From Frankiaceae bacterium (GTDB lineage Bacteria > Actinomycetota > Actinomycetes > Mycobacteriales > SCTD01), in contig JAENVS010000002.1 of assembly GCA_016650445.1 (NCBI GenBank), positions 10,980 to 74,979 on the forward strand: DNA of 64,000 bases, read 5' to 3'. Each line of letters opens with the position of its first letter. The first letter of the stretch is position 1. Both the position numbers and the translations under genes were made by a program. Positions 3,038 to 49,532 of the stretch are shown here, piece after piece. The notes under the pieces are model-generated. The model did not search any database. It was given only the letters and a program-made list of their open reading frames with translations, and was not told where the DNA came from.

Positions 3038-3238
3038 GTCCGAACGGGTGATGCGCGGCCATCCGCCGTGGAGAACGCTCAACGGGCACGGCAAAACCTG
3101 CCGTCCGGCCGAGCGATCGGCTGGCGGGTGGGGGGCACGGATCCGAGTGGTCCACACCGACACCCACAAGGTGCACGGAGGAAGACGGTCGCCTAGACCG
3201 CTCGGGGAGCCAGTGGCGAGCCCGATCTGTCCGGTACG
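3038..3238 (+). promoter_or_regulatory. Conserved structured 5' leader, copy B (upstream of LPFTG surface-protein gene 2)
   Basis: Collinear with 1377-1580. Core block 3170-3200 matches 1510-1540 at 30/31 positions. Hairpins at 3088-3104, 3105-3124 (an extended version of the copy-A stem) and 3186-3200. Distance to the start codon is the same as in copy A. Confidence 0.55.
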
Positions 3239-3276: not shown

Positions 3277-5661
3277 GTGAACGTTCTCCCTCAGTCCCTC
3301 GCGACCGGCCTGCGACGCCGTGCTGCGCGGCGGGGCGCTGCGCTTGCCCTGGCCGTCGCCGTAGTCGCCCTGTTCGGTGGGGTGCCAGCCTCGGCCGGTG
3401 GCAGCGGGACGGTCAAGGTCGACGGTGACGACGTCGGCGGTCCCGGCAACGCGCCGCACCAGGCGTGCGGGCTGCAGGTCTCCCTGTACGACTTCGACGC
3501 GGGCGCGCACAACGCGGTGGTTACGTGGACCGCGAAGGACACGGGTCTGCCGATCGTCACCACCCCCGCGAGCGGCGCGACCAACCCCTACCCGTTTAAC
3601 GCGAGCGGCAACTCCGAGCTCAACATCTCCCTCCCCTTTGCCCTGCACACCGCCGGTCTCACGTTCCACGCCGGCCTCGGGTACCACGTCACGCTGGACG
3701 TGAGCGTCGACGGCGTCGGCAAGAGCAAGGTCATCTACGTCGGCGCCTGCTCGACGGACGTGGCCCTGTCCAAGACGACGTCGACTCCGACCGTCGCAGT
3801 CGGCGACGCGGTGCACTACACGCTGACCGTCACCAACAACGGCCCGCTGAACGGCGTGGGCTTCCAGGTCACCGACACGCTGCCGGCCGGGTTCACCCTG
3901 ACCTCCATCACGGCCCCCCTGTGGGACTGCGTCGGCACGGGTGTCGACTGCACGTACAAGCCCTCGAGTCCGCCGGTCCTGGTGGGCTCGTCGACGTCCT
4001 TCACCGTCAACGGCACGGCAACGGCCGCGGGCATCCCGTCCATGACGAACAACGCGCACCTTGACCCGCAGGACACGGACAACACCAACAACGCGGCCTC
4101 GGTGGTCGTCAACGTGAACGGCCTCGCGACCTCGCAGGCCGTGACCTTCGCGGACTCGGCCTGTGTGGCCAACCAGTCGACGGCGAACACCTACACGATC
4201 CCTGACCCGATCCCGACCGGTGTGGTCTACAAGATCGGTGCCGCCACCCAGACCGCGGGGCAGCACGCCGCCAGCCCCGGTCTGCTCACGGTCGACGTGA
4301 CTGCGGCTCCCGGCTACACCCTGTCTGGACTGGCGCAGTACACCCACACCTTCCCGGCCGTGGCGACCGGCTGCGAAGCCCCCACGGCGGCGGTGACGAA
4401 GGCCAACAACGCGAACGGGGATGAGACCTTCAGCATCTCGGAGGAGGCGACCTCGGTCTCACAGCCCGTGCAGTTCAAGCTGACGGTCACCAACACCAGC
4501 CCCTACGCGATCGACGTCAACCCGTCGATCTCCGACCAGGTGTGGGTAGGTGCGGAGCCCACGGAGGGCCCCAACCCCACGTCGTACAACTGCCTGCCGG
4601 CGATCACCAACCTGGCGCCCACGGTCAGTGCTTCCTGCGTGTTCACCGCGGACAGCTACTCGCCGGAGGACGGCGTGACCAAGTCCAACCGGGCGACGGT
4701 CACGTTGACCAAGTTCGTTCCTGTGGACGTTGACGTTCCGGGCCTGCGGCGCTTCAGGGCAGCGGCGCTGGTCGCGCCGTTCACCGCCGTCAGCAACGTC
4801 TCGACGGTGAAGACGGTGAAGCCCGTGATCCGCGTCGTCCTGCCGACCCCGGCTGCGGCGGTTGCCCCGACGGCGTCGCAGTCGACGTGCACCAACGGCA
4901 CCGCAACGACTCCCTCGTTCACCGTCCCGACGACGACGGGTGTGGTCTACACGCCGGCCACCGGCGGGACCGCGACGCCGGGCTCGACGGTGACCGTGAC
5001 GGCTGCTGCGGCTCCCGGCTACGTCCTGAGCGGACCGAGCAGCTTCCCGCTGGTCTTCGCAGCGCTGGCGGACTGCAGCATCACGGACAACGTCGGCGTC
5101 AGCAAGACCGGCCCCGGCACCGCACAGCCGGGTGACGAACTGGTCTACGCGATCGACGTGACCAACGTGCGGGGTACGCCGGCCACCGCCTTCACGGTCG
5201 TCGACACCCTGCCCGCGGGGCTGTCGTTCAGCTCCGCCGTCGGCTCCGGCTTCGCCTGCACCAACGCCGCCCAGGTCATCACGTGCGTGTACGGCGGTCC
5301 GGCGCTCACCGTCGGTCAGTCGGCCACCATCTCGGTCCGGGCACTGCTCGACAGCACCTTCAGCGGGACGTCGGTCGCCAACACGGCGGTCGTCGACCCG
5401 GGCCGGGCCGACTCCGACGCCGGTGACAACAGCGCGACCGCGACCACTGCGGTCGTCCCGCTGCCGATCTCCGGCGGTGGAGGCGGCGCCGTGGAGGAGC
5501 CCGCCGCCTCACCGTCGCCCGAGCCCGTCGCCGGTGGTGGAGGGGCCCTGCCGTTCACCGGCATCGACGGCGCCCAGCTCCTGCAGCTCGGAGTCTCGCT
5601 CCTGCTGGCCGGCCTGTTCGTGTCGCTGGCCACCCGCCGGCGGCGGACCAGCGCGGAGTAG
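3277..5661 (+). CDS. Large sortase-anchored surface protein with DUF11-type repeats, LPFTG sorting signal
   Basis: GTG start with signal peptide (RRGAALALAVAVVALFGGVPASA). DUF11-like repeats (VALSKTTSTPTVAVGDAVHYTLTVTNNG; GVSKTGPGTAQPGDELVYAIDVTN). Repeated GVVY..APGY.LSG modules are shared with gene 1. C-terminus is LPFTG plus TM plus RRRR. Confidence 0.85.
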   Translation: MNVLPQSLATGLRRRAARRGAALALAVAVVALFGGVPASAGGSGTVKVDGDDVGGPGNAPHQACGLQVSLYDFDAGAHNAVVTWTAKDTGLPIVTTPASGATNPYPFNASGNSELNISLPFALHTAGLTFHAGLGYHVTLDVSVDGVGKSKVIYVGACSTDVALSKTTSTPTVAVGDAVHYTLTVTNNGPLNGVGFQVTDTLPAGFTLTSITAPLWDCVGTGVDCTYKPSSPPVLVGSSTSFTVNGTATAAGIPSMTNNAHLDPQDTDNTNNAASVVVNVNGLATSQAVTFADSACVANQSTANTYTIPDPIPTGVVYKIGAATQTAGQHAASPGLLTVDVTAAPGYTLSGLAQYTHTFPAVATGCEAPTAAVTKANNANGDETFSISEEATSVSQPVQFKLTVTNTSPYAIDVNPSISDQVWVGAEPTEGPNPTSYNCLPAITNLAPTVSASCVFTADSYSPEDGVTKSNRATVTLTKFVPVDVDVPGLRRFRAAALVAPFTAVSNVSTVKTVKPVIRVVLPTPAAAVAPTASQSTCTNGTATTPSFTVPTTTGVVYTPATGGTATPGSTVTVTAAAAPGYVLSGPSSFPLVFAALADCSITDNVGVSKTGPGTAQPGDELVYAIDVTNVRGTPATAFTVVDTLPAGLSFSSAVGSGFACTNAAQVITCVYGGPALTVGQSATISVRALLDSTFSGTSVANTAVVDPGRADSDAGDNSATATTAVVPLPISGGGGGAVEEPAASPSPEPVAGGGGALPFTGIDGAQLLQLGVSLLLAGLFVSLATRRRRTSAE

Positions 5662-22892: not shown

Positions 22893-23650
22893 GTGACCTG
22901 GCGGTCAGCAACAAGGGTCGCGTGCTGCGACTGCACATCGACCGGGAGCCGAAGCGCAACGCCCTCAACGGCGAGGTGCTCCGCGGAATGCTCGATGCCT
23001 TGCGGTCACCGGGCGACGCACGCGTCGTGCTCGTCAGCAGCGCGGGGGAGAAGGTCTTCTGCTCCGGCGCCGACCTCGTGGCGATGGCACCCAACGCCAC
23101 CGGGCTCGAGGTGCACGAGGGTCGTGGCCTGCTGCGTGAGGTCGTGCTGGAGATGCGCGCGTGCCCGCTCCCGGTGGTCGCTTCGGTGCAGGGACTGTGC
23201 CTGGCCGGCGGGGTCGGCCTGGTGATGGGTTGCGACATCGTGCTTGCCGCGGAGTCGGCTGCCTTCGGGCTCCCGGAGGTCGACCTCGGGCTCTGGCCGT
23301 TCATGGTCAGTGCGCTGCTCGGTCGGCATGTCAGCCCGAAGCGCGCACTCGAGATGATGCTGTCGGCCCGCCGCGTGCCAGCCCGAGAGGCACTCGAGAT
23401 GGGGCTGATCTCGCGCGTCGTCGACGACCTTCCCGCGGAGACCGACGCCTTGGTTGCCGCACTCGCCGCCAAGCCGCCCGTCGCCGTACGGCTCGGCAAG
23501 AAGGCCTTCTTCGCCGCGATGGACAGCTCGCTCGAAGCCGGGTTGGAAGCCATGCAGGCCCAGCTGTCCCTTCTCAACACCACGCAGGACGCCGCCGAAG
23601 GCGTCGGTGCCTTCCTCGAGAAGCGCAAGCCGGAGTGGAAGGGCCGCTGA
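22889..23650 (+). CDS. Enoyl-CoA hydratase/isomerase (crotonase) family protein
   Basis: GTGA overlap with the upstream gene. FCSGADL oxyanion motif and G.C.AGG..L.M.CD. Confidence 0.8.
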   Translation: MSDLAVSNKGRVLRLHIDREPKRNALNGEVLRGMLDALRSPGDARVVLVSSAGEKVFCSGADLVAMAPNATGLEVHEGRGLLREVVLEMRACPLPVVASVQGLCLAGGVGLVMGCDIVLAAESAAFGLPEVDLGLWPFMVSALLGRHVSPKRALEMMLSARRVPAREALEMGLISRVVDDLPAETDALVAALAAKPPVAVRLGKKAFFAAMDSSLEAGLEAMQAQLSLLNTTQDAAEGVGAFLEKRKPEWKGR

Positions 23651-23690
23651 TCGGCTCTGATCCGGCCCTGATCGGCGTAACCTCGACGGC

Positions 23691-25130
23691 ATGACGGAGA
23701 CGCCTCAGGAAGCCACTGCCGCGGCGACGCACGACCCCGACCGCCCGGCGGCGCTGCTGGAGTTCATGAGCACCGGCTGGGCCCCCCGCGAGGAGTCGCT
23801 GCCGGCTGCGGCGCCCGCATCGTCGTACTGCTCCGCTCGTCGGCGGGCCCTCGCCGAGCGCTTCCCGGGTGAGGTCCTCGTCGTACCGACCGGGGGTTAC
23901 AAGACCCGCGCGAACGACACGGAGTTCCGGTTCCGACCGGGCACCGAGTTCGCCTACCTCGCCGGCTCGCACGAGCCCGACGCCGTGCTGGTCATCGACG
24001 CCAAGGGGGACGCCGTCCTCTACCAAGCACCGTCGATGGACCGCTCGACGCCGTCGTTCTTCACCGACCGGATGTACGGCGAGCTGTGGGTCGGGCCGCG
24101 GCCGACGCTCGCCGCGACGAGCGCGCTATTGGGCATCGAGACGCGCCCGCTCGAGGAGCTGGACAAGCTGTCCGGCAAGGCCCGCGTCGTGCGTGGCTTC
24201 GACGCCCGCATCGAGTCGCTGTTCGACTCGGAGGAGGAGAACGACACCGAGCTGGCGGTCTTCCTGTCCGAGCAGCGGCTGGTCAAGGACGAGCACGAGG
24301 TCGCGCAGCTGCAGGAAGCCGTCGACGCGACGATCCTGGGCTTCGAGGACGTCGTGCGGCAGCTGCCGGCCGCGGTGCAGACGACCGAGCGCTGGATCGA
24401 GGGCGTGTTCGGGCTGCGCGCTCGGGTCGAGGGCAACGACGTGGGCTACGGCTCCATCTGCGCGGCCGGCACGCACGCGTGCATCCTGCACTGGACAGAC
24501 AACGACGGCGAGGTGCGCGAGGGCGATCTGGTACTGCTCGACATGGGCGTCGAGGGCCACGAGCTCTACACCGCCGACGTCACCCGGACTCTGCCGGTCA
24601 ACGGCACCTTCACGCCGCGGCAGCGCGAGGTCTACACCCTCGTCTACGAGTCGCAGGAAGCGGCAATCGCAGCGTGCAAGCCGGGCGCCGACTTCCTCGA
24701 CCCGCACCGGGCCGCCATGAAGGTGCTCGCCGAGGGCCTCGAGCGGATGGGGATCCTCGAGTCGGCCGAGTCCGCCCTGGCCGAGGACAGCCAGCTCTAC
24801 CGCCGCTACACCCTGCACGGCGTCAGCCACATGCTCGGCCTCGACGTGCACGACTGCGCGCACGCGCGCAAGGAGATGTACACGAAGGGGACCCTCGCCG
24901 AGGGCTACGTCCTCACGATCGAGCCCGGTCTGTACTTCCAGCCCGACGACCTCACCGTGCCGGCGGACCTGCGCGGGATCGGTGTGCGGATCGAGGACGA
25001 CGTCGTCGTGACGAAGGACGGCTGCCGCAACCTTTCCGCGGCCCTGCCCAGGCACCCGGACGAGGTCGAGGCGTGGATGTCGGGTCTTCGCGAGGAGTCG
25101 CTCGACCACCCCCCTCTACGAGAGCACTGA
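23691..25130 (+). CDS. Xaa-Pro aminopeptidase (M24B, PepP-like)
   Basis: Creatinase-like N-terminal domain plus M24 metal ligands (DMG..Y.ADVTRT, HG.SH.LGLDVHD, EPGLY, GIGVRIEDDV). Confidence 0.85.
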   Translation: MTETPQEATAAATHDPDRPAALLEFMSTGWAPREESLPAAAPASSYCSARRRALAERFPGEVLVVPTGGYKTRANDTEFRFRPGTEFAYLAGSHEPDAVLVIDAKGDAVLYQAPSMDRSTPSFFTDRMYGELWVGPRPTLAATSALLGIETRPLEELDKLSGKARVVRGFDARIESLFDSEEENDTELAVFLSEQRLVKDEHEVAQLQEAVDATILGFEDVVRQLPAAVQTTERWIEGVFGLRARVEGNDVGYGSICAAGTHACILHWTDNDGEVREGDLVLLDMGVEGHELYTADVTRTLPVNGTFTPRQREVYTLVYESQEAAIAACKPGADFLDPHRAAMKVLAEGLERMGILESAESALAEDSQLYRRYTLHGVSHMLGLDVHDCAHARKEMYTKGTLAEGYVLTIEPGLYFQPDDLTVPADLRGIGVRIEDDVVVTKDGCRNLSAALPRHPDEVEAWMSGLREESLDHPPLREH

Positions 25131-25330
25131 CCCAAATGGGCTCCGTGCGCGTGTAGAGCGCCCCTGTCCGGGGCGTCCAGTTCTTATGCCACGAGTGGCT
25201 GGCTGGTGCCTGCTTCATCGGGTGGCACCGACCAGACAGCCTGGGCTGCCGGGTCTGACGTCCACCCTCCACAGGCGTGACGAGCGGGCTCGTCTGACCG
25301 GCCTGCTGGGTGCAGGTCCCGGGCCTGGGA
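25131..25330 (-). ncRNA. Candidate TnpB-associated omega (reRNA) scaffold and guide region
   Basis: By analogy with characterised TnpB loci, the RNA overlaps the tnpB 3' end and the right end. Hairpins are seen at 25279-25294 (GACGAG-cggg-CTCGTC), 25205-25229 (GGTGCC..GGCACC) and 25158-25176. Not verified. Confidence 0.3.
25158..25176. terminator. GC stem-loop between the convergent pepP and tnpB genes
   Basis: GCGCCCC-tgtcc-GGGGCGT (7 bp including one G-U), followed on the plus strand by CCAGTTCTTAT. Could be a pepP terminator, a bidirectional terminator, or part of the IS right end / omega-RNA. Confidence 0.4.
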
Positions 25331-26569
25331 GTCATCGCAGGGGCAGGTGCCCCGTTGGTGCTCGCCCCAGGCGGCGAGGGTCGCGGCAGCGTTCAGGTCG
25401 CGGTCAAGGACCAGACCGCAGCGGTCGCAGGTGTAGGTGCGCTCGGACAGGGCCAGCTTGGCTTTCACTGATCCGCAGCTCGAGCACGTCTTGGACGAGG
25501 GGAAGAAGCGGGGGGCGAGCAGCACCGTGCCGCCGGCCCAGTCGGCTTTGTAGGTGAGCTGCCGGCCGAGCTCCCCCCAGCCTTCGTCGGCGATGGAACG
25601 GGCCAGCCGCGAGTTCGCCATCAGGTTCTTGGTCGACAGGGTCTCCAGCACGAGCACCAGGTGCGTCTGGATGAGGGCGCTCGAGTAGGCGTGGAGGGCG
25701 TTCTTACGTTGCTGCGCGACCTTCTCGTGTAGCCGTCCAACCCTGGCGACAGCCTTGCGTCGGTTCCGGCTCGATGCTTGTCCGCGCACGGTGCGGCGAC
25801 TGACGGTGCGCTGCGCCCGAGCGAGCTTCCGCGAGGTCTGACGCAGATACCGCCCGGAGTCGAGCGCGAGAACCGCTGCTCCGTCGGCGGTTGCGGCGAC
25901 CGCGCCCGTCCGGATCCCCCGGTCGACCCCGACGATCGGCATGCAGGCGGCCGCCGCCACTGCCGGCGCCCGCAACTGTTGCTCGATCTTGCACGACGCC
26001 CACCACGAACCGTCCGCATGCCGCGCGATCGTCACACTCGTGATCCGGGCCCGGCCGCGACGGATGAGCCGGCGGAGCCTCGCTTGGTCGGGGTCGGGGC
26101 CAGCAATCCGGATCTCGCCTATCTTCGGCAGGCGCAGCGCCCCGGCCGCCAGCCGGCAATCCCGGCCCCACTCGGTCCAACGCTCCCGAGCCTTGCCCTT
26201 CTTCGCGAACTTCGGGAACCGCGTCCGGCCCGACAGGAACCCGTTCGAAGCCGCTGCCGCGTCGACAGCGGCGAACTCCAAGACCCACACGCTGAGCTCA
26301 CGCAGCCATTCCGGCCGATCCGCCTTCAGCGCGTTGCGCAGATCCATCGCCGACAGCGGCTTGACCCGCTCCTTCGCGTCAATGCCTGCATCACGCTGCG
26401 CCTGCCAGACGGCGTGGTTCTGGGCGATCAGCGCAACGGACTGGTTGAAGCACCACCGACGCGAACCAGCCGACCGCGCGAACCAACCGGTCTGCATGTT
26501 GGTCGGATCCAGCTTGAACGACACCCCGTACCGGCGAAGTCTCGCCTGCGGCCTAGCCACCTCGCCCAT
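25184..26569 (-). CDS. tnpB: TnpB RNA-guided endonuclease (OrfB_IS605 / Cas12 ancestor family)
   Basis: RuvC-like residues in IVGVDRGI, VLETLS and LDRDLNAA. Zinc finger CSSCG..CDRCG. Typical PKFAKKGK and RLPKIGEIR segments. ATG 26569 preferred over the TTG at 26599. Confidence 0.9.
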   Translation of the reverse strand: MGEVARPQARLRRYGVSFKLDPTNMQTGWFARSAGSRRWCFNQSVALIAQNHAVWQAQRDAGIDAKERVKPLSAMDLRNALKADRPEWLRELSVWVLEFAAVDAAAASNGFLSGRTRFPKFAKKGKARERWTEWGRDCRLAAGALRLPKIGEIRIAGPDPDQARLRRLIRRGRARITSVTIARHADGSWWASCKIEQQLRAPAVAAAACMPIVGVDRGIRTGAVAATADGAAVLALDSGRYLRQTSRKLARAQRTVSRRTVRGQASSRNRRKAVARVGRLHEKVAQQRKNALHAYSSALIQTHLVLVLETLSTKNLMANSRLARSIADEGWGELGRQLTYKADWAGGTVLLAPRFFPSSKTCSSCGSVKAKLALSERTYTCDRCGLVLDRDLNAAATLAAWGEHQRGTCPCDDSQARDLHPAGRSDEPARHACGGWTSDPAAQAVWSVPPDEAGTSQPLVA

Positions 26570-26666
26570 GTCGGCGATGGTGCCCGGCCCGTCCGACAAA
26601 TTTCAGGTCAGTGCAGTCGAAAGGTGCTGGCACTAGGGTCGGAGCGACATCGAGCGAGGAGTGCAG

Positions 26667-26879
26667 ATGGCCGAGGTACGCGCCGAAATGGTCGCGAACG
26701 TCTGGAAGGTCGTGGTCGCCGAAGGGGACCCTGTCGCCGACGGGGACACCCTGGTCATCCTCGAGTCGATGAAGATGGAGATCCCGGTGCTGGCGGAGGG
26801 CGACGGGACCGTCTCCACGCTCGCCGTGAGCGAGGGCGACGTCGTCCAGGAAGGCGACGTGATCGCGGTCATCTCGTGA
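26667..26879 (+). CDS. Small biotin/lipoyl-attachment domain protein (TB7.3-like orphan BCCP)
   Basis: 70 aa with the biotinylation motif ESMKME. GGAG lies 6 nt before ATG 26667 (GTG 26661 is an alternative start). Confidence 0.8.
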   Translation: MAEVRAEMVANVWKVVVAEGDPVADGDTLVILESMKMEIPVLAEGDGTVSTLAVSEGDVVQEGDVIAVIS

Positions 26880-26957
26880 GCGAGGTGTGACGGCAGCGCT
26901 CAGACTGACCCTTTCGGGTGGGTCAAGCCGGGGCCGTCGTACGCCGAAGAGCAGAAC

Positions 26958-28037
26958 GTGACCAACTCCATCGAGCCTTTCCTGCGCGCGCTCGTCGAGT
27001 GCGGCGGCTCCGACTTGCACTGCAAGGTCGGGTCCCCGCCCCGGGTGCGCATCGACGGCCGGCTGCGCAAGCTGCAGACGCGTGACCTGAGCGCGGCGGA
27101 CACCTCGCAGATGGTCAGCGAGGTGCTGCGCGAGGACCTCGTCGAGGAGTTCCATAAGTCCAACGAGGCCGACTTCGCCTACTCGCTGTCCGGCGTCGGC
27201 CGCTTCCGCGTCAACGCCTTCCGCTCCCGCGGGTCCTGCGGACTGGTCTTCCGGCGCGTCAGCGTGGGTGCCATCCCGCTGCAGGACCTGGGCCTGCCGG
27301 CGGTACTCGCCTCGCTCGCCATGGAGCCCCGAGGTCTGGTCCTCGTCACCGGCCCGACCGGGTCCGGGAAGACGACGACGCTGGCCGGCATGATCGACCA
27401 CATCAACAGCAACAAAGAGGTCCACGTCGTCACGATCGAGGACCCGATCGAGGTCCTGCACTTCGACAAGATGGCGATGATCAACCAGCGCGAGGTCCGC
27501 GTCGACACCGAGGACTTCGTGACAGCGATGCGCGCCGCCATGCGGCAGGACCCCGACGTCATCCTCGTCGGTGAGATGCGCGACCACGAGACCGTGAAGG
27601 CGGGACTGGCCGCGGCCGAGACCGGCCACTTCGTCATGTCGACGCTGCACACGACCGACGCGGCCGAGACCGTCAACCGCATCATCGACTTCTTCCCGCC
27701 GCACGAGCAGAAGCAGATCCGGCTCGCGCTCGCCGGCGCCCTGCGCGGCATCATCTGCCAGCGCCTCGTGCCGCGGGCCGATGGCGAGGGCCGCTGCGTG
27801 GTCATGGAGATCGCGGTCAACACCGGCCGTATCGCCGACGCGATCGCCGACCCCGACAAGACCTCGTCGCTGCCGCAGCTGATCGCCGAGGGCGGCTACT
27901 ACGGCATGCAGACCTTCGACCAGCACCTGGTCACGTTCATCCGCGACGGCGTCATCACGCTCGAGGCCGCGATGGCCGCCAGCACGAGCCCGCACGACCT
28001 CACCGTCGAGCTGCGCCGCCTCGGCCTCGTCGCCTGA
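26958..28037 (+). CDS. pilT: PilT-family type IV pilus retraction-type ATPase
   Basis: Walker A GPTGSGKTTT, Asp box IEDPIE, Walker B DVILVGEMRD, His box TGHFVMSTLHT. Confidence 0.85.
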   Translation: MTNSIEPFLRALVECGGSDLHCKVGSPPRVRIDGRLRKLQTRDLSAADTSQMVSEVLREDLVEEFHKSNEADFAYSLSGVGRFRVNAFRSRGSCGLVFRRVSVGAIPLQDLGLPAVLASLAMEPRGLVLVTGPTGSGKTTTLAGMIDHINSNKEVHVVTIEDPIEVLHFDKMAMINQREVRVDTEDFVTAMRAAMRQDPDVILVGEMRDHETVKAGLAAAETGHFVMSTLHTTDAAETVNRIIDFFPPHEQKQIRLALAGALRGIICQRLVPRADGEGRCVVMEIAVNTGRIADAIADPDKTSSLPQLIAEGGYYGMQTFDQHLVTFIRDGVITLEAAMAASTSPHDLTVELRRLGLVA

Positions 28038-28150
28038 CACCTGCCCGCCTCGTCATCTCGGAGATGCCGGGCTGACACGCCGGCGAGTCGGCCCGGTTGC
28101 TCCGAGACCAGTCACCGGCGATGGGCTGAAGGTTTCCCGGCGACCTGCCG

Positions 28151-28984
28151 ATGACTCGGGGCATGCGCCACGCACCGGTCGCTGACTCGTCCGGGTCCTC
28201 GCCTGAGGTCCGGATCGCTGCCGTCATGGTGGGCGCCGGCGCGGTGCTCGGCGTGCTGCTCCTCGTCGCCGGCGGCATGCTCTTCACGGTTGACCCGGGG
28301 TTTCTGTTCGCCGTGCTGCCCGTCATCATCGGCGCCGTTCTCGTCGCCGGGTTCCAGCTGCTCACCGTGTCGGTGTCGCTGTCCCGCCAGCTGCTGAAGC
28401 ACCAGCCCGGAGCACGGCTGCAGGCCGCGGTCATCGGTGGCTGCGTCATGCTCTCCGGTCTGGTCGGCTGCACCATCGCGCCACTGATGGGCCTGCCGAT
28501 CGCCGTCTACGGCGCCGTTCTGTTCTGGCTCATGACGACTTCCGCAGCATCCCGCGATCTCGGTCCGTGGGTTGTCGTCAGGGCGCCGCGCAATCGATCG
28601 CAGCAGATGCCGCGTTGGGTGCCGCGCTCGTGGCGGCCGGCGCCGACACCTACCGAGCAGCCGCCCTCCTTCTTCACCGGGTCGCAGCCGCTACCGGGCG
28701 GCCAGCCGCCGTTCTTCACCGGCGCGGGTCCGGGAGCGAAGCGGCAGCGACCCGCGACCTGGATGGAGCTCTGGCAGGAGGGCCTCGGTCGAATCCCGCT
28801 TGCGGATCTCGTCGCGGTGGTGATCGGTCTCGTCGCTTTCGTCGTCGGCGACGTGCTGATGTTCATGACGCTCGTCGGTGCTCACCACGGCGGCCTCCCG
28901 GTGGCGCTGCTCCTCATCGGAGCAGCCATCGCGATCCACGTCGTGCTCGAGCGGCGGATGCTCGCGCGCCTCGGCTACGCCTGA
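28151..28984 (+). CDS. Polytopic membrane protein, unknown function
   Basis: About six hydrophobic helices split by a Pro/Gln-rich loop (PPSFFTGSQPLPGGQPPFFTG). GC3-rich. Confidence 0.55.
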   Translation: MTRGMRHAPVADSSGSSPEVRIAAVMVGAGAVLGVLLLVAGGMLFTVDPGFLFAVLPVIIGAVLVAGFQLLTVSVSLSRQLLKHQPGARLQAAVIGGCVMLSGLVGCTIAPLMGLPIAVYGAVLFWLMTTSAASRDLGPWVVVRAPRNRSQQMPRWVPRSWRPAPTPTEQPPSFFTGSQPLPGGQPPFFTGAGPGAKRQRPATWMELWQEGLGRIPLADLVAVVIGLVAFVVGDVLMFMTLVGAHHGGLPVALLLIGAAIAIHVVLERRMLARLGYA

Positions 28985-29195
28985 GTTCGGCAGCAAGCAC
29001 GGATGAGGGGCGCAAACGACGGCGCCGCGCGTGATCGGCGTGCGCACCGCACGTGTATGACGTGAGCGTGCCGTGCGCACGGCGATCTTGGAACCAGCCG
29101 CGCAGGGCGGCGACCGCGCCTCACCTCGGTCGGGCTGGTCTCCGTTCCGGAGGTCTCCTCACGCACCATCGATCCGAGCCCGCTGCCGAACCCAG

Positions 29196-47954: not shown

Positions 47955-48095
47955 GGATGCCGTTAGCCCATGTCCGTGACGGACGTGGACGTGCGAGCTC
48001 TTGGCGGAGCGGCAATGTTCTCCACAGCGAGGAATGCCTTGCACAGCAGGGGAATCCGTTCCGGTTTTGTCGGAGGTCGTCAGTAGGTTTCTCGC

Positions 48096-49532
48096 ATGCC
48101 CACCGCCGCCTCGCCCGTCGACTGGTCTACACGACCGGGGCCCTCGGCGATGTCGCCTGAGAAGCTGGCGGCGTTCGTAGACAAGGCGGTCGCCCGCACG
48201 GACGGCATGTTGTTCACGGCGACGCCGACCGAGGAGCTTGACGCAATCGGACGCTGGCAGCAGATCAAGGACCGGGCGTTCGCTGGTCTGATGCGCGAGA
48301 TCGTGGCGGCCTACAACCGGGCGGGCACCGAGGAGCGGGAGTTCGCTGCCGACGAGGTCGGTCTGGCGGTCGGGGCGGCGTCGACGACAGGCGGCAACCT
48401 GGTCGCGCAAGCACTCGCGGTGTCGGCGCTGCCCGGTTTGCTCGAAGCGGTCGATGCCGGGCAGCTCACCGAGCGGCACGTGCTGGCGGTTGTGCGCGAG
48501 CTGGACAGGGTCGAGCTCACGCTCGAGCAGCGGCAGGCGGTCGTGCTCGTCATGCTCGCGCGTTACCAGGGGCAGACACCCGGTGAGCTCGGCGCGCTGG
48601 TGGCCCGGCTGATCGTGCAGGTCGACCGGGCGGCTGCTGCCGCGCGGGACGCCAAGGCCACCGGGGAGCGCAAGGTGTGGTTCTCCCGCGACGTCGACGG
48701 CCAAGCGCTGGTGCTCGCCCGCGGGCCGGCCGCGAAGATCGCCGCGATCCGCGCGTCGCTCGAGGCGACCTTGCCGGACGAGGCCGAGCCCGGGGATGAG
48801 CGCAGCCGGGACGCGCGAGAGTTCGACCTGTTCGTCGACCTGCTGACCGGCGGCGCGGAGGCCGGATCCTGGAGTGCCGAAGTTGTCGTCCCGTTCTCTG
48901 TCGCGCAGGCCGGTGACGTGGAGCTGGCCGATATCCCGGGCCTCGGCCCGATCCTGCCCTCGACCGCCCGTGACCTGCTCGGCCAGTGCGACACAATCAC
49001 CCAGATCGCTGTCGACCAGGACGGCAAGGTCATCGCGGTCGGCGACCCGATCCGACCCGACTCCCCACCGGGACGACCCGCCGACGAGCCGCCGGTCGAA
49101 GAGCCGCCGGTCGACGAGCCGCCGGCCAGCGAGCCGCCGGCCAGCGAGCCGCCGGCCGACGAGCCGCTGGTCCAGCGATCGGGCATGACGCCGCTGTCAC
49201 CGCGGGTGCTGCGCCGCATCGCTTCCCCTCCGTCGATGCGGGACATGGCTGGCAGCGGCTACCGATTCCCACCCCGGCTCCGCCGGTTCCTCGAGGAGCG
49301 CGACCGCACCTGCGTGTTCCCGGGCTGCGGCCGACCCGCCCGCAAGACCGACAAAGACCACCGAAGGCCCTGGCCGGCCGGTCCGACCAGCGCCGACAAC
49401 GGCGACTGCCTGTGCCGACATCACCATCGCGCCAAGCACACGATCTTCACCGTCCTACGCGACACTGACGGCAGCTACATCTGGATTACCCGCGGCGGGT
49501 GGCAGTTCCGCCGACATCCCAAGGGCTACTGA
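48096..49532 (+). CDS. DUF222 / HNH endonuclease domain protein (13E12-repeat-like family)
   Basis: N-terminal DUF222-like region. C-terminal HNH/zinc motif (CVFPGCGRPARKTDKDH...NGDCLCRHHHRAKH). Preceded by a lower-GC spacer. Confidence 0.8.
   Translation: MPTAASPVDWSTRPGPSAMSPEKLAAFVDKAVARTDGMLFTATPTEELDAIGRWQQIKDRAFAGLMREIVAAYNRAGTEEREFAADEVGLAVGAASTTGGNLVAQALAVSALPGLLEAVDAGQLTERHVLAVVRELDRVELTLEQRQAVVLVMLARYQGQTPGELGALVARLIVQVDRAAAAARDAKATGERKVWFSRDVDGQALVLARGPAAKIAAIRASLEATLPDEAEPGDERSRDAREFDLFVDLLTGGAEAGSWSAEVVVPFSVAQAGDVELADIPGLGPILPSTARDLLGQCDTITQIAVDQDGKVIAVGDPIRPDSPPGRPADEPPVEEPPVDEPPASEPPASEPPADEPLVQRSGMTPLSPRVLRRIASPPSMRDMAGSGYRFPPRLRRFLEERDRTCVFPGCGRPARKTDKDHRRPWPAGPTSADNGDCLCRHHHRAKHTIFTVLRDTDGSYIWITRGGWQFRRHPKGY
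49083..49172 (+). repeat. In-frame 15-nt tandem repeat x6 inside the HNH gene (encodes [DES]EPP[VA] units)
   Basis: GACGAGCCGCCGGTC / GAAGAGCCGCCGGTC / GACGAGCCGCCGGCC / AGCGAGCCGCCGGCC / AGCGAGCCGCCGGCC / GACGAGCCGCTGGTC, read directly from the sequence. Confidence 0.9.

Follow-up and report, generated by a model that had tools for sequence, protein, structure and literature searches.

A 64,000-nucleotide stretch of contig JAENVS010000002.1 from a Frankiaceae bacterium (the whole of it is called the window below, and positions are counted within it) carries a solo gene for TnpB, an RNA-guided nuclease, between the gene for an Xaa-Pro aminopeptidase (pepP) and that for a small biotinyl protein. 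Comparison with related genomes, with other members of the same TnpB family and with the predicted fold of its guide RNA (omegaRNA) makes it likely, in our judgement, that the gene belongs to a non-autonomous TnpB/omegaRNA transposon of ~1.52 kb, inserted antisense at the TAG stop codon of pepP and mobilised in trans. The element is of an ordinary, common kind; the pattern of insertion at stop codons is modestly interesting.

Insertion at the pepP stop codon

Species-representative genomes were scanned with the aminopeptidase, yielding 80 loci (numbered L001 and onwards, as are the other related loci below), and the ~38 closest were examined by tblastn. In none of these ~38 genomes does tnpB follow pepP; the carrier-protein gene or pilT follows directly. 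The closest empty locus (L031), whose PilT, carrier protein and PepP are 98%, 97% and 89% identical to those of the window, reads ...GAGTCGCTCGACCAC TGA CGG...ATG, a second (L006) reads ...GAGCCAC TAG GGTCGCGG..., and in both, as in L007, the sequence runs uninterrupted across the site (...GACCAC directly followed by TGA or TAG). These empty sites place the insertion at 25110-26633 on the minus strand (1524 bp, ±3 nt), with junctions GAGTCGCTCGACCAC/CCCCCTCTACGAGAGCACTGA at 25109/25110 and GGTGCTGGCAC/TAGGGTCGGAGCG at 26633/26634; the boundary is ambiguous by up to 3 nt because CAC both precedes the inserted segment in the flank (25107-25109) and ends it from within (26631-26633). An earlier note on this DNA had put an inserted element at 25131-26650, and had suggested aligning related pepP loci that lack it to define its ends. 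The insertion stands, and the empty sites correct the interval, which began 21 nt inside the element and finished 17 nt outside it. The note had also held that finding the gene at this position in every relative would speak for an ancient fixed gene; its absence from the ~38 relatives favours insertion. Together, the comparisons indicate a lineage-specific insertion between pepP and the biotinyl-protein gene in this Frankiaceae lineage, rather than an ancient fixed gene.

The upstream neighbour, pepP (an M24 Xaa-Pro aminopeptidase; 23691-25130, plus strand), bears the marks of the event. The element lies antisense to it, between its last sense codon and its own TAG stop. That displaced ancestral stop now stands at 26634-26636 (plus strand), where it reads CTA(G) on the element strand and adjoins the left end as a candidate target-adjacent motif (TAM); in its place L006 and L007 have TAGGGTCG and L031 has TGA. 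PepP ends in ...ESLDH in L031 and in ...ESLSH in L006, and the window protein ends six codons inside the element, whose right end encodes a new C-terminal extension, PPLREH, and a TGA at 25128-25130 (together 25110-25130, plus strand). The description with which we began, of a tnpB antisense between two housekeeping genes with flanks of about 53 and 97 nt and no tnpA, agrees with the flanks found here, 53 nt (25131-25183) and ~98 nt (26570-26667), and with the absence of any transposase domain from the 48 candidate open reading frames (ORFs) of high third-codon-position GC content (GC3) in the window. It needs amending in one respect: the element extends beyond intergenic space, its right end reaching 21 nt into the present pepP ORF (25110-25130) and supplying the new stop.

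The other neighbours are the gene for a 72-aa biotin/lipoyl carrier protein and a gene for a PilT-type ATPase. The small carrier gene is found between pepP and pilT in some relatives only (L006, L007, L014, L018, L019, L023, L031 and L045); as it is present in only some of the pepP loci compared (L008-L013 and others), this intergenic slot is variable even without a TnpB element.

The nuclease and its predicted guide RNA

The tnpB gene lies within a minus-strand ORF (25184-26599) of 471 aa when read from a TTG; from the ATG at 26569 it encodes 461 aa (25184-26569, minus strand), a protein identical to a database entry from a 75-kb contig of a metagenome-assembled genome, 'transposase [Frankiaceae bacterium]'. 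It matches the Pfam families OrfB_IS605 (PF01385, 63.5 bits), Cas12f1-like_TNB (PF07282, 73.3 bits) and HTH_OrfB_IS605, with both the RuvC domain and the zinc-ribbon (TNB) domain above their curated cutoffs. The NCBIfam model guided_TnpB (NF040570) gives 218 bits against a cutoff of 100, while the IS607_TnpB and IS200_TnpB models score equally, at 215 bits each, and both below their cutoffs. In an alignment to the solved ISDra2 TnpB (E = 2e-42, residues 16-398), D216, E309 and D391 fall, residue for residue, on the catalytic D191, E278 and D361, and these three residues and the zinc-finger cysteines C362, C365, C381 and C384 are invariant among 18 family members of 46-80% identity. The motifs from which a solo TnpB had been recognised (VDRG, LETL, DRDLNAA and the zinc finger) are thereby borne out, and the worry that the catalytic residues might prove misaligned is laid to rest. 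The intact triad, together with the absence of the gene from this locus in relatives, likewise upholds the view that this is not a TldR, a nuclease-dead TnpB-derived transcription regulator. The gene is that of a solo TnpB with an intact active site.

Against an 81%-identical homologue, the core of tnpB has a ratio of non-synonymous to synonymous divergence (dN/dS) of 0.19. The GC3 of the gene region (25184-26602) is 0.83, below the 0.91-0.95 of the flanking host genes; overall GC content is the same in the element as in its surroundings and gives no foreign mark. A consensus scan for promoters and terminators found nothing, as expected with a high-GC actinobacterium.

The predicted omegaRNA is encoded by the 3' part of tnpB and the 75 nt downstream of it, its scaffold of ~223 nt (25109-25331, minus strand) extending from the last ~150-165 nt of the gene through the G-run at the right end. 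In all family members conservation continues 3' of the tnpB stop (GAACTGGACGCCCCGGACAGGGGCG..., followed by a hairpin) as far as a run of 5-8 G; past this run every locus has unrelated sequence, so that a sharp boundary divides scaffold from variable flank. A consensus structure for the last 260 nt of 12 members contains 46 pairs in 10 helices, with 96.3% of cells paired, as against 33-49% when the partners are slid by 1-3 columns, and compensatory changes in 22 of the 46 pairs, where the slid controls have 4-9; in 500 column shuffles the observed values were never matched. All of the helices pair in the window copy, which folds at -115.5 kcal/mol (z = -3.56) and in which CUCCC near 25331 pairs with the terminal G-run to form the closing helix. 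The overlap is visible in the protein-coding sequence as well: synonymous divergence from the 81%-identical relative is 0.73 over codons 1-400 and 0.12 over codons 401-461, which overlap the RNA. Covariation with synonymous constraint is the signature expected of an omegaRNA, and we take the predicted RNA to be one; an Rfam scan of 23000-29000 (E <= 1) assigned it to no family.

Because the boundary between conserved scaffold and variable flank recurs in all family members, the predicted guide is placed to the right of 25109, as the 16 nt TGGTCGAGCGACTCCT (25093-25108, minus strand), the first nucleotides beyond the right end of the element and antisense to the last pepP codons. This flank-derived RNA segment would act as the guide that directs cleavage. 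In the window the guide has a perfect match only at its own site. The empty site in L031, which reads TCA-G-TGGTCGAGCGACTCC, has 16 nt identical to the guide, adjoining TCA.

Family, ends and landing sites

Homologues of 55-81% identity occur in unrelated loci: adjoining an alcohol dehydrogenase gene (L001), a GDPD gene (L097) or PPK2/SWIM genes (L221), between ATP-synthase genes (L003), between a TetR gene and an acyl-CoA synthetase gene (L004), between ferredoxin (Fer2) and AHSA1 genes (L222), and as two diverged copies 25 kb apart on one 147-kb contig (L099 and L100); a luciferase-like gene is also among the neighbours. Such scatter shows the family to be mobile, and the gene is not an ancient fixed one at this site. 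No transposase gene, including Y1 or serine tnpA, is found beside the ~14 members examined or in the window; the family is mobile, solo and apparently non-autonomous. A metagenome scan with the TnpB protein gave 10 loci, three of them useful. Viral contigs, searched by DNA pattern and protein profile, gave chance matches or homologues of <=34% identity; a plasmid collection held no DNA match to the omegaRNA region, and protein matches of <=35% identity, mostly labelled IS607 TnpB, that are too distant to indicate a transposase serving the family.

One member (L003:3389-5243) lies within an ATP-synthase operon, flanked by the gene for the beta subunit and that for a short epsilon subunit (86 aa), with ~270 nt without assignment between its right end and atpD. 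Two related metagenome contigs (L094:627-917 and L095:3000-3284) hold a 5'-truncated remnant in which TnpB starts near residue 393 and the omegaRNA region and right end are complete, the left inverted repeat being absent; the remnant is perhaps a copy in decay, or else a solo guide RNA that has been kept.

The distribution of the family bears on the idea that the gene is a fixed, domesticated guide-RNA nuclease or regulator serving its host, for instance by acting on pepP or the carrier-protein gene. A read-through transcript would run antisense to pepP, and tnpB and all omegaRNA helices are intact in a copy whose left repeat is degenerate and which has no target duplication, as might be expected of a domesticated gene. 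Yet it is missing from the locus in every related genome examined, one with a 98%-identical PilT included; the members are scattered over unrelated loci; the window offers the guide no further match; the nuclease residues are intact, unlike those of known TldR regulators; and the purifying selection on tnpB is equally expected of an active selfish element and so does not point to a host function. Domestication therefore seems to us very improbable.

The ends of the element suggest how it may have moved. The right end carries a terminal inverted repeat (25109-25132, minus strand; CCCCCCTCTACGAGAGCACTGACC on the plus strand) that is also the 3' arm of the last omegaRNA hairpin, and the left end a degenerate counterpart (26606-26630, minus strand), matching the right at ~16 of 24 positions and with its C-run interrupted. 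When left ends are aligned with the reverse complement of right ends, inverted repeats of 20-26 nt are found in 9 of 10 members, as in L221 (CCCGCCTTCTGATGGCGTTGGGAT and CCCCCCTTCTGATGCCGTTGGGAT), the window copy having the most degenerate pair among those compared. Since the right-end hairpin has its loop within the repeat, we are dealing with a true inverted repeat rather than two similar palindromes. Directly outside the inverted repeats, between a TCA motif and the repeat, five of the ten members have 8-bp direct repeats, matching at 8/8 positions in L003 (GCGCGGGG), L097 (GCGGTCGG), L221 (GGTCCGGG) and L222 (GCTGTACA) and at 7/8 in L004; by the same anchored test, 90 mismatched control pairings reached at most 6/8. 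(An unanchored longest-common-substring test was uninformative, 6-8-mers recurring by chance in GC-rich DNA.) The left flank of another member, L096, was discarded as a fold-back assembly artefact, positions 1-78 being the reverse complement of 1609-1686; the fold-back switches at the inverted repeat of the element, which makes that flank unusable.

In L099 the flanking repeat, GTGGTGG, is displaced by an extra 8 nt, CGCTGCGT, after the right-end G-run (4443-4457), and the element looks as if it had carried 8 nt of its previous flank to its present site. Three other sources of the 8-bp repeats were considered and set aside: exchange at an IS607 GG core, for which the left junction has no GG; a tyrosine recombinase with coupling sequences, for which L099 has three 8-nt units rather than two; and IS605 transposition with read-through excision, which is contrived.

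The landing sites share a motif. TCA stands to the left of the 8-nt segment in six members (L003, L004, L097, L099, L221 and L222), and CTA in the window copy. At all of these except L003 the trinucleotide is the in-frame stop (TGA or TAG) of a host gene that runs convergently, whose coding end now abuts the right end of the element and receives from it a replacement stop: CCC CCC TTC TGA, adding PPF, in L004, L097, L099 and L221, PPLPQK in L222 and PPLREH in the window. In L100 and on contig P0009 the convergent genes end 50-58 nt after the tnpB stop. As TCA or CTA directly precedes the guide-matching sequence in the empty site, we regard TCA/CTA(G) as the candidate TAM. On the evidence of about a dozen sites, the stop-codon pattern may be a property of integration or may reflect the survival of the least harmful TCA/CTA insertions. 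A literature search for stop-codon-targeting TnpB elements returned nothing relevant.

These features also weigh on a classical origin, in which the element would be a solo derivative of IS200/IS605 (IS1341-type) or IS607, moved by a TnpA whose gene lies at another place in the genome, either a Y1 enzyme acting on single-stranded DNA or a serine enzyme. The majority of solo TnpBs belong to such kinds (PMC10691335), the protein is closest to ISDra2-type and IS607-type TnpBs, the short TCA/CTA motif abuts the left side as an IS605 target or TAM would, the window copy has no target duplication, and the right end finishes in G's as in most IS607 elements (PMC13565253). The true inverted repeats of ~25 nt that include the right-end hairpin loop count against it, as do the 8-bp duplications in five relatives and the want of a tnpA beside ~14 members or in the window. 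Nor do the left ends look like those of IS605: their folds across members range from z = +0.5 to -1.6, not one of them significant, and relatives share no conserved hairpin at this end. The hairpin to which the earlier note had drawn attention (AGTGCAG..CTGGCACT, 26610-26634) is present as sequence, but it lies across the boundary of the element, does not figure in the minimum-energy fold and is equalled by 51 of 200 shuffles, and so is not a significant left-end hairpin. The GG core of IS607 is not seen either: the right end has G5-8, and the left junctions read ...CTAGTG/CCAG in the window and ...GTACA/CCCCCC in L222. We accordingly think a classical origin unlikely, and the IS1341-type label proposed earlier doubtful in view of the ~25-nt terminal inverted repeats and the 8-bp flanking repeats in half of the members.

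The inverted repeats and, in half of the relatives, 8-bp duplications suggest instead a double-strand enzyme of the cut-and-paste or copy-and-paste sort, like the DDE transposases, and point away from the Y1 enzymes of IS605 and the serine enzymes of IS607; from this end architecture, the transposase acting in trans is probably DDE-like. Several observations weigh against an element mobilised in this way. A transposase partner was found neither beside ~14 members nor in the window, repeat searches of the window recovered no second copy of the element or its ends, and the DNA examined contains no further copies of the inverted repeats. The candidate TAM is drawn from only ten sites. The 8-bp duplication is absent from the window copy, L001 and L098, and stands at a chance-level 4/8 in L100; the window copy, for which the exact empty site is known, shares only 3 nt across its flanks (CAC), and L001 likewise only 3 nt. 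Members without the duplication mean that a single DDE-type mechanism does not explain all of them. Decay of an original duplication in the window copy is possible, and would need a 2-nt deletion and three substitutions.

With its degenerate left repeat and no 8-bp duplication, the window copy may perhaps no longer be mobilisable, although its nuclease and guide RNA sequences are intact. A stronger version of this, that the element is an inert relic which arrived long ago, neither moves nor acts, and has not yet accumulated disabling mutations, strikes us as improbable. It would account for the degenerate left end, for the single copy in the window and for a GC3 (0.83) below that of the neighbouring genes (0.91-0.95), and 5'-truncated relics of the family do exist (L094 and L095). 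An ORF of the full 461 codons with every catalytic residue and zinc ligand, the pairing of all omegaRNA helices in the window copy and a guide that still matches the L031 empty site over 16 nt all sit poorly with it.

Elsewhere in the window, and unrelated to the TnpB element, two direct-repeat pairs lie near a gene for a DUF11-domain protein: 1459-1540 and 3119-3200 (82 nt, 82% identity, 1.7 kb apart), and 2288-2432 and 5088-5232 (145 nt, 74% identity, 2.8 kb apart). At 49077-49166, an ORF without a Pfam match (48087-49532) contains five to six 15-nt units in tandem (CCGGTCGACGAGCCG-like), which specify a short peptide repeat rich in proline and glutamate.

Proposed mechanism and relation to known systems

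By analogy with ISDra2-type systems, the tnpB transcript of this transposon would be processed to an omegaRNA with the flanking sequence TGGTCGAGCGACTCC... as its 3' guide, and TnpB-omegaRNA would cut element-free copies of the locus, in which TCA/CTA(G) is followed by the guide-matching sequence. Repair templated by a copy that carries the element would then put the insertion back or spread it. The occupied site itself would be spared, because the G-run of the element, and not the motif, precedes the guide-matching sequence there. Movement to new sites would depend on the transposase supplied in trans.

Inverted-repeat ends and a habit of landing at stop codons are neither of them typical of TnpB elements, and in its inverted repeats, its 8-bp duplication starting the guide and its stop-codon insertion with a replacement stop the family is modestly new. 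We raise as a tentative possibility, short of an even chance, that it represents an undescribed type of bacterial TnpB transposon, defined by inverted repeats of ~25 bp, an 8-bp duplication that forms the first 8 nt of the guide, an antisense preference for stop codons, a replacement stop (after PPF or PPLREH) and a transposase acting in trans. Insertion would on this proposal be almost harmless, TCA/CTA being the complement of TGA/TAG and the right end handing the host gene an in-frame stop.

For annotation, the lesson is that a 'transposase' between housekeeping genes can be a recent, precisely placed insertion, here one that altered the final codons of pepP yet did not destroy the gene. The family offers a small, clean natural data set, with an exact empty site, a covariation-supported guide RNA and a candidate TCA/CTA(G) motif, in elements whose ends resemble those of cut-and-paste transposons and not those of IS605 or IS607; prokaryotic TnpB systems outside these two groups have been named as under-studied (PMC13565253). 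If the stop-codon preference stems from the way the element integrates rather than from survivorship, TnpB transposons would have in it a second means of hiding from selection, alongside the self-splicing IStrons. With its predicted guide RNA and short motif, a compact, high-GC TnpB might also serve as an editing tool.

Of the characterised systems, the TnpB/omegaRNA of ISDra2 (IS200/IS605; structures 8H1J and 8EXA) shares with this family the fold, the D/E/D triad and the zinc finger, a guide RNA encoded across the tnpB 3' end and the right end, a guide taken from the flank and a short left-side motif, TTGAT in ISDra2 and TCA/CTA(G) as the candidate here. The family differs from it in having inverted repeats of ~25 nt and, in half of its members, 8-bp duplications, in lacking a significant left-end hairpin or a nearby Y1 tnpA, and in a C-terminal tail of ~60 aa whose codons are constrained as RNA. 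IS607 elements (serine TnpA; the Clostridium botulinum (Cbo) IStron and IS1535) likewise have right ends that finish in G's, and the nearest annotated plasmid homologues are labelled IS607 TnpB; again the inverted repeats and duplications set the window family apart, and no serine recombinase gene was found. Both IS200/IS605 and IS607 are described as being without inverted repeats or duplications (PMC13565253, PMC6188088).

Closer parallels lie among the TnpB branches associated with DDE transposases and inverted repeats, described together with solo TnpBs that have the same ends by Altae-Tran et al. 2023 (PMC10691335). As there, our elements have symmetric inverted-repeat ends, a tnpB 3' end <250 bp from the transposon end and solo copies presumed to be mobilised in trans; unlike the six branches described there, no member here was found to adjoin a DDE gene, and membership of one of those branches is at most putative. 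The main text of that study does not describe a variable 8-bp duplication that starts the guide, or insertion at stop codons. TldR regulators, too, are solo tnpB-like genes beside housekeeping genes, from which the present family is distinguished by its intact RuvC triad, its lack of synteny in relatives and its mobility. Fanzor, finally, places a TnpB-type nuclease in eukaryotic cut-and-paste transposons that likewise have inverted repeats and target duplications. The TAM of Fanzor elements includes the 5' duplication, and their RNA scaffold the 3' one (PMC13565253), whereas in the family described here the duplication is variable and would provide the first 8 nt of guide and target, with the motif lying outside it.

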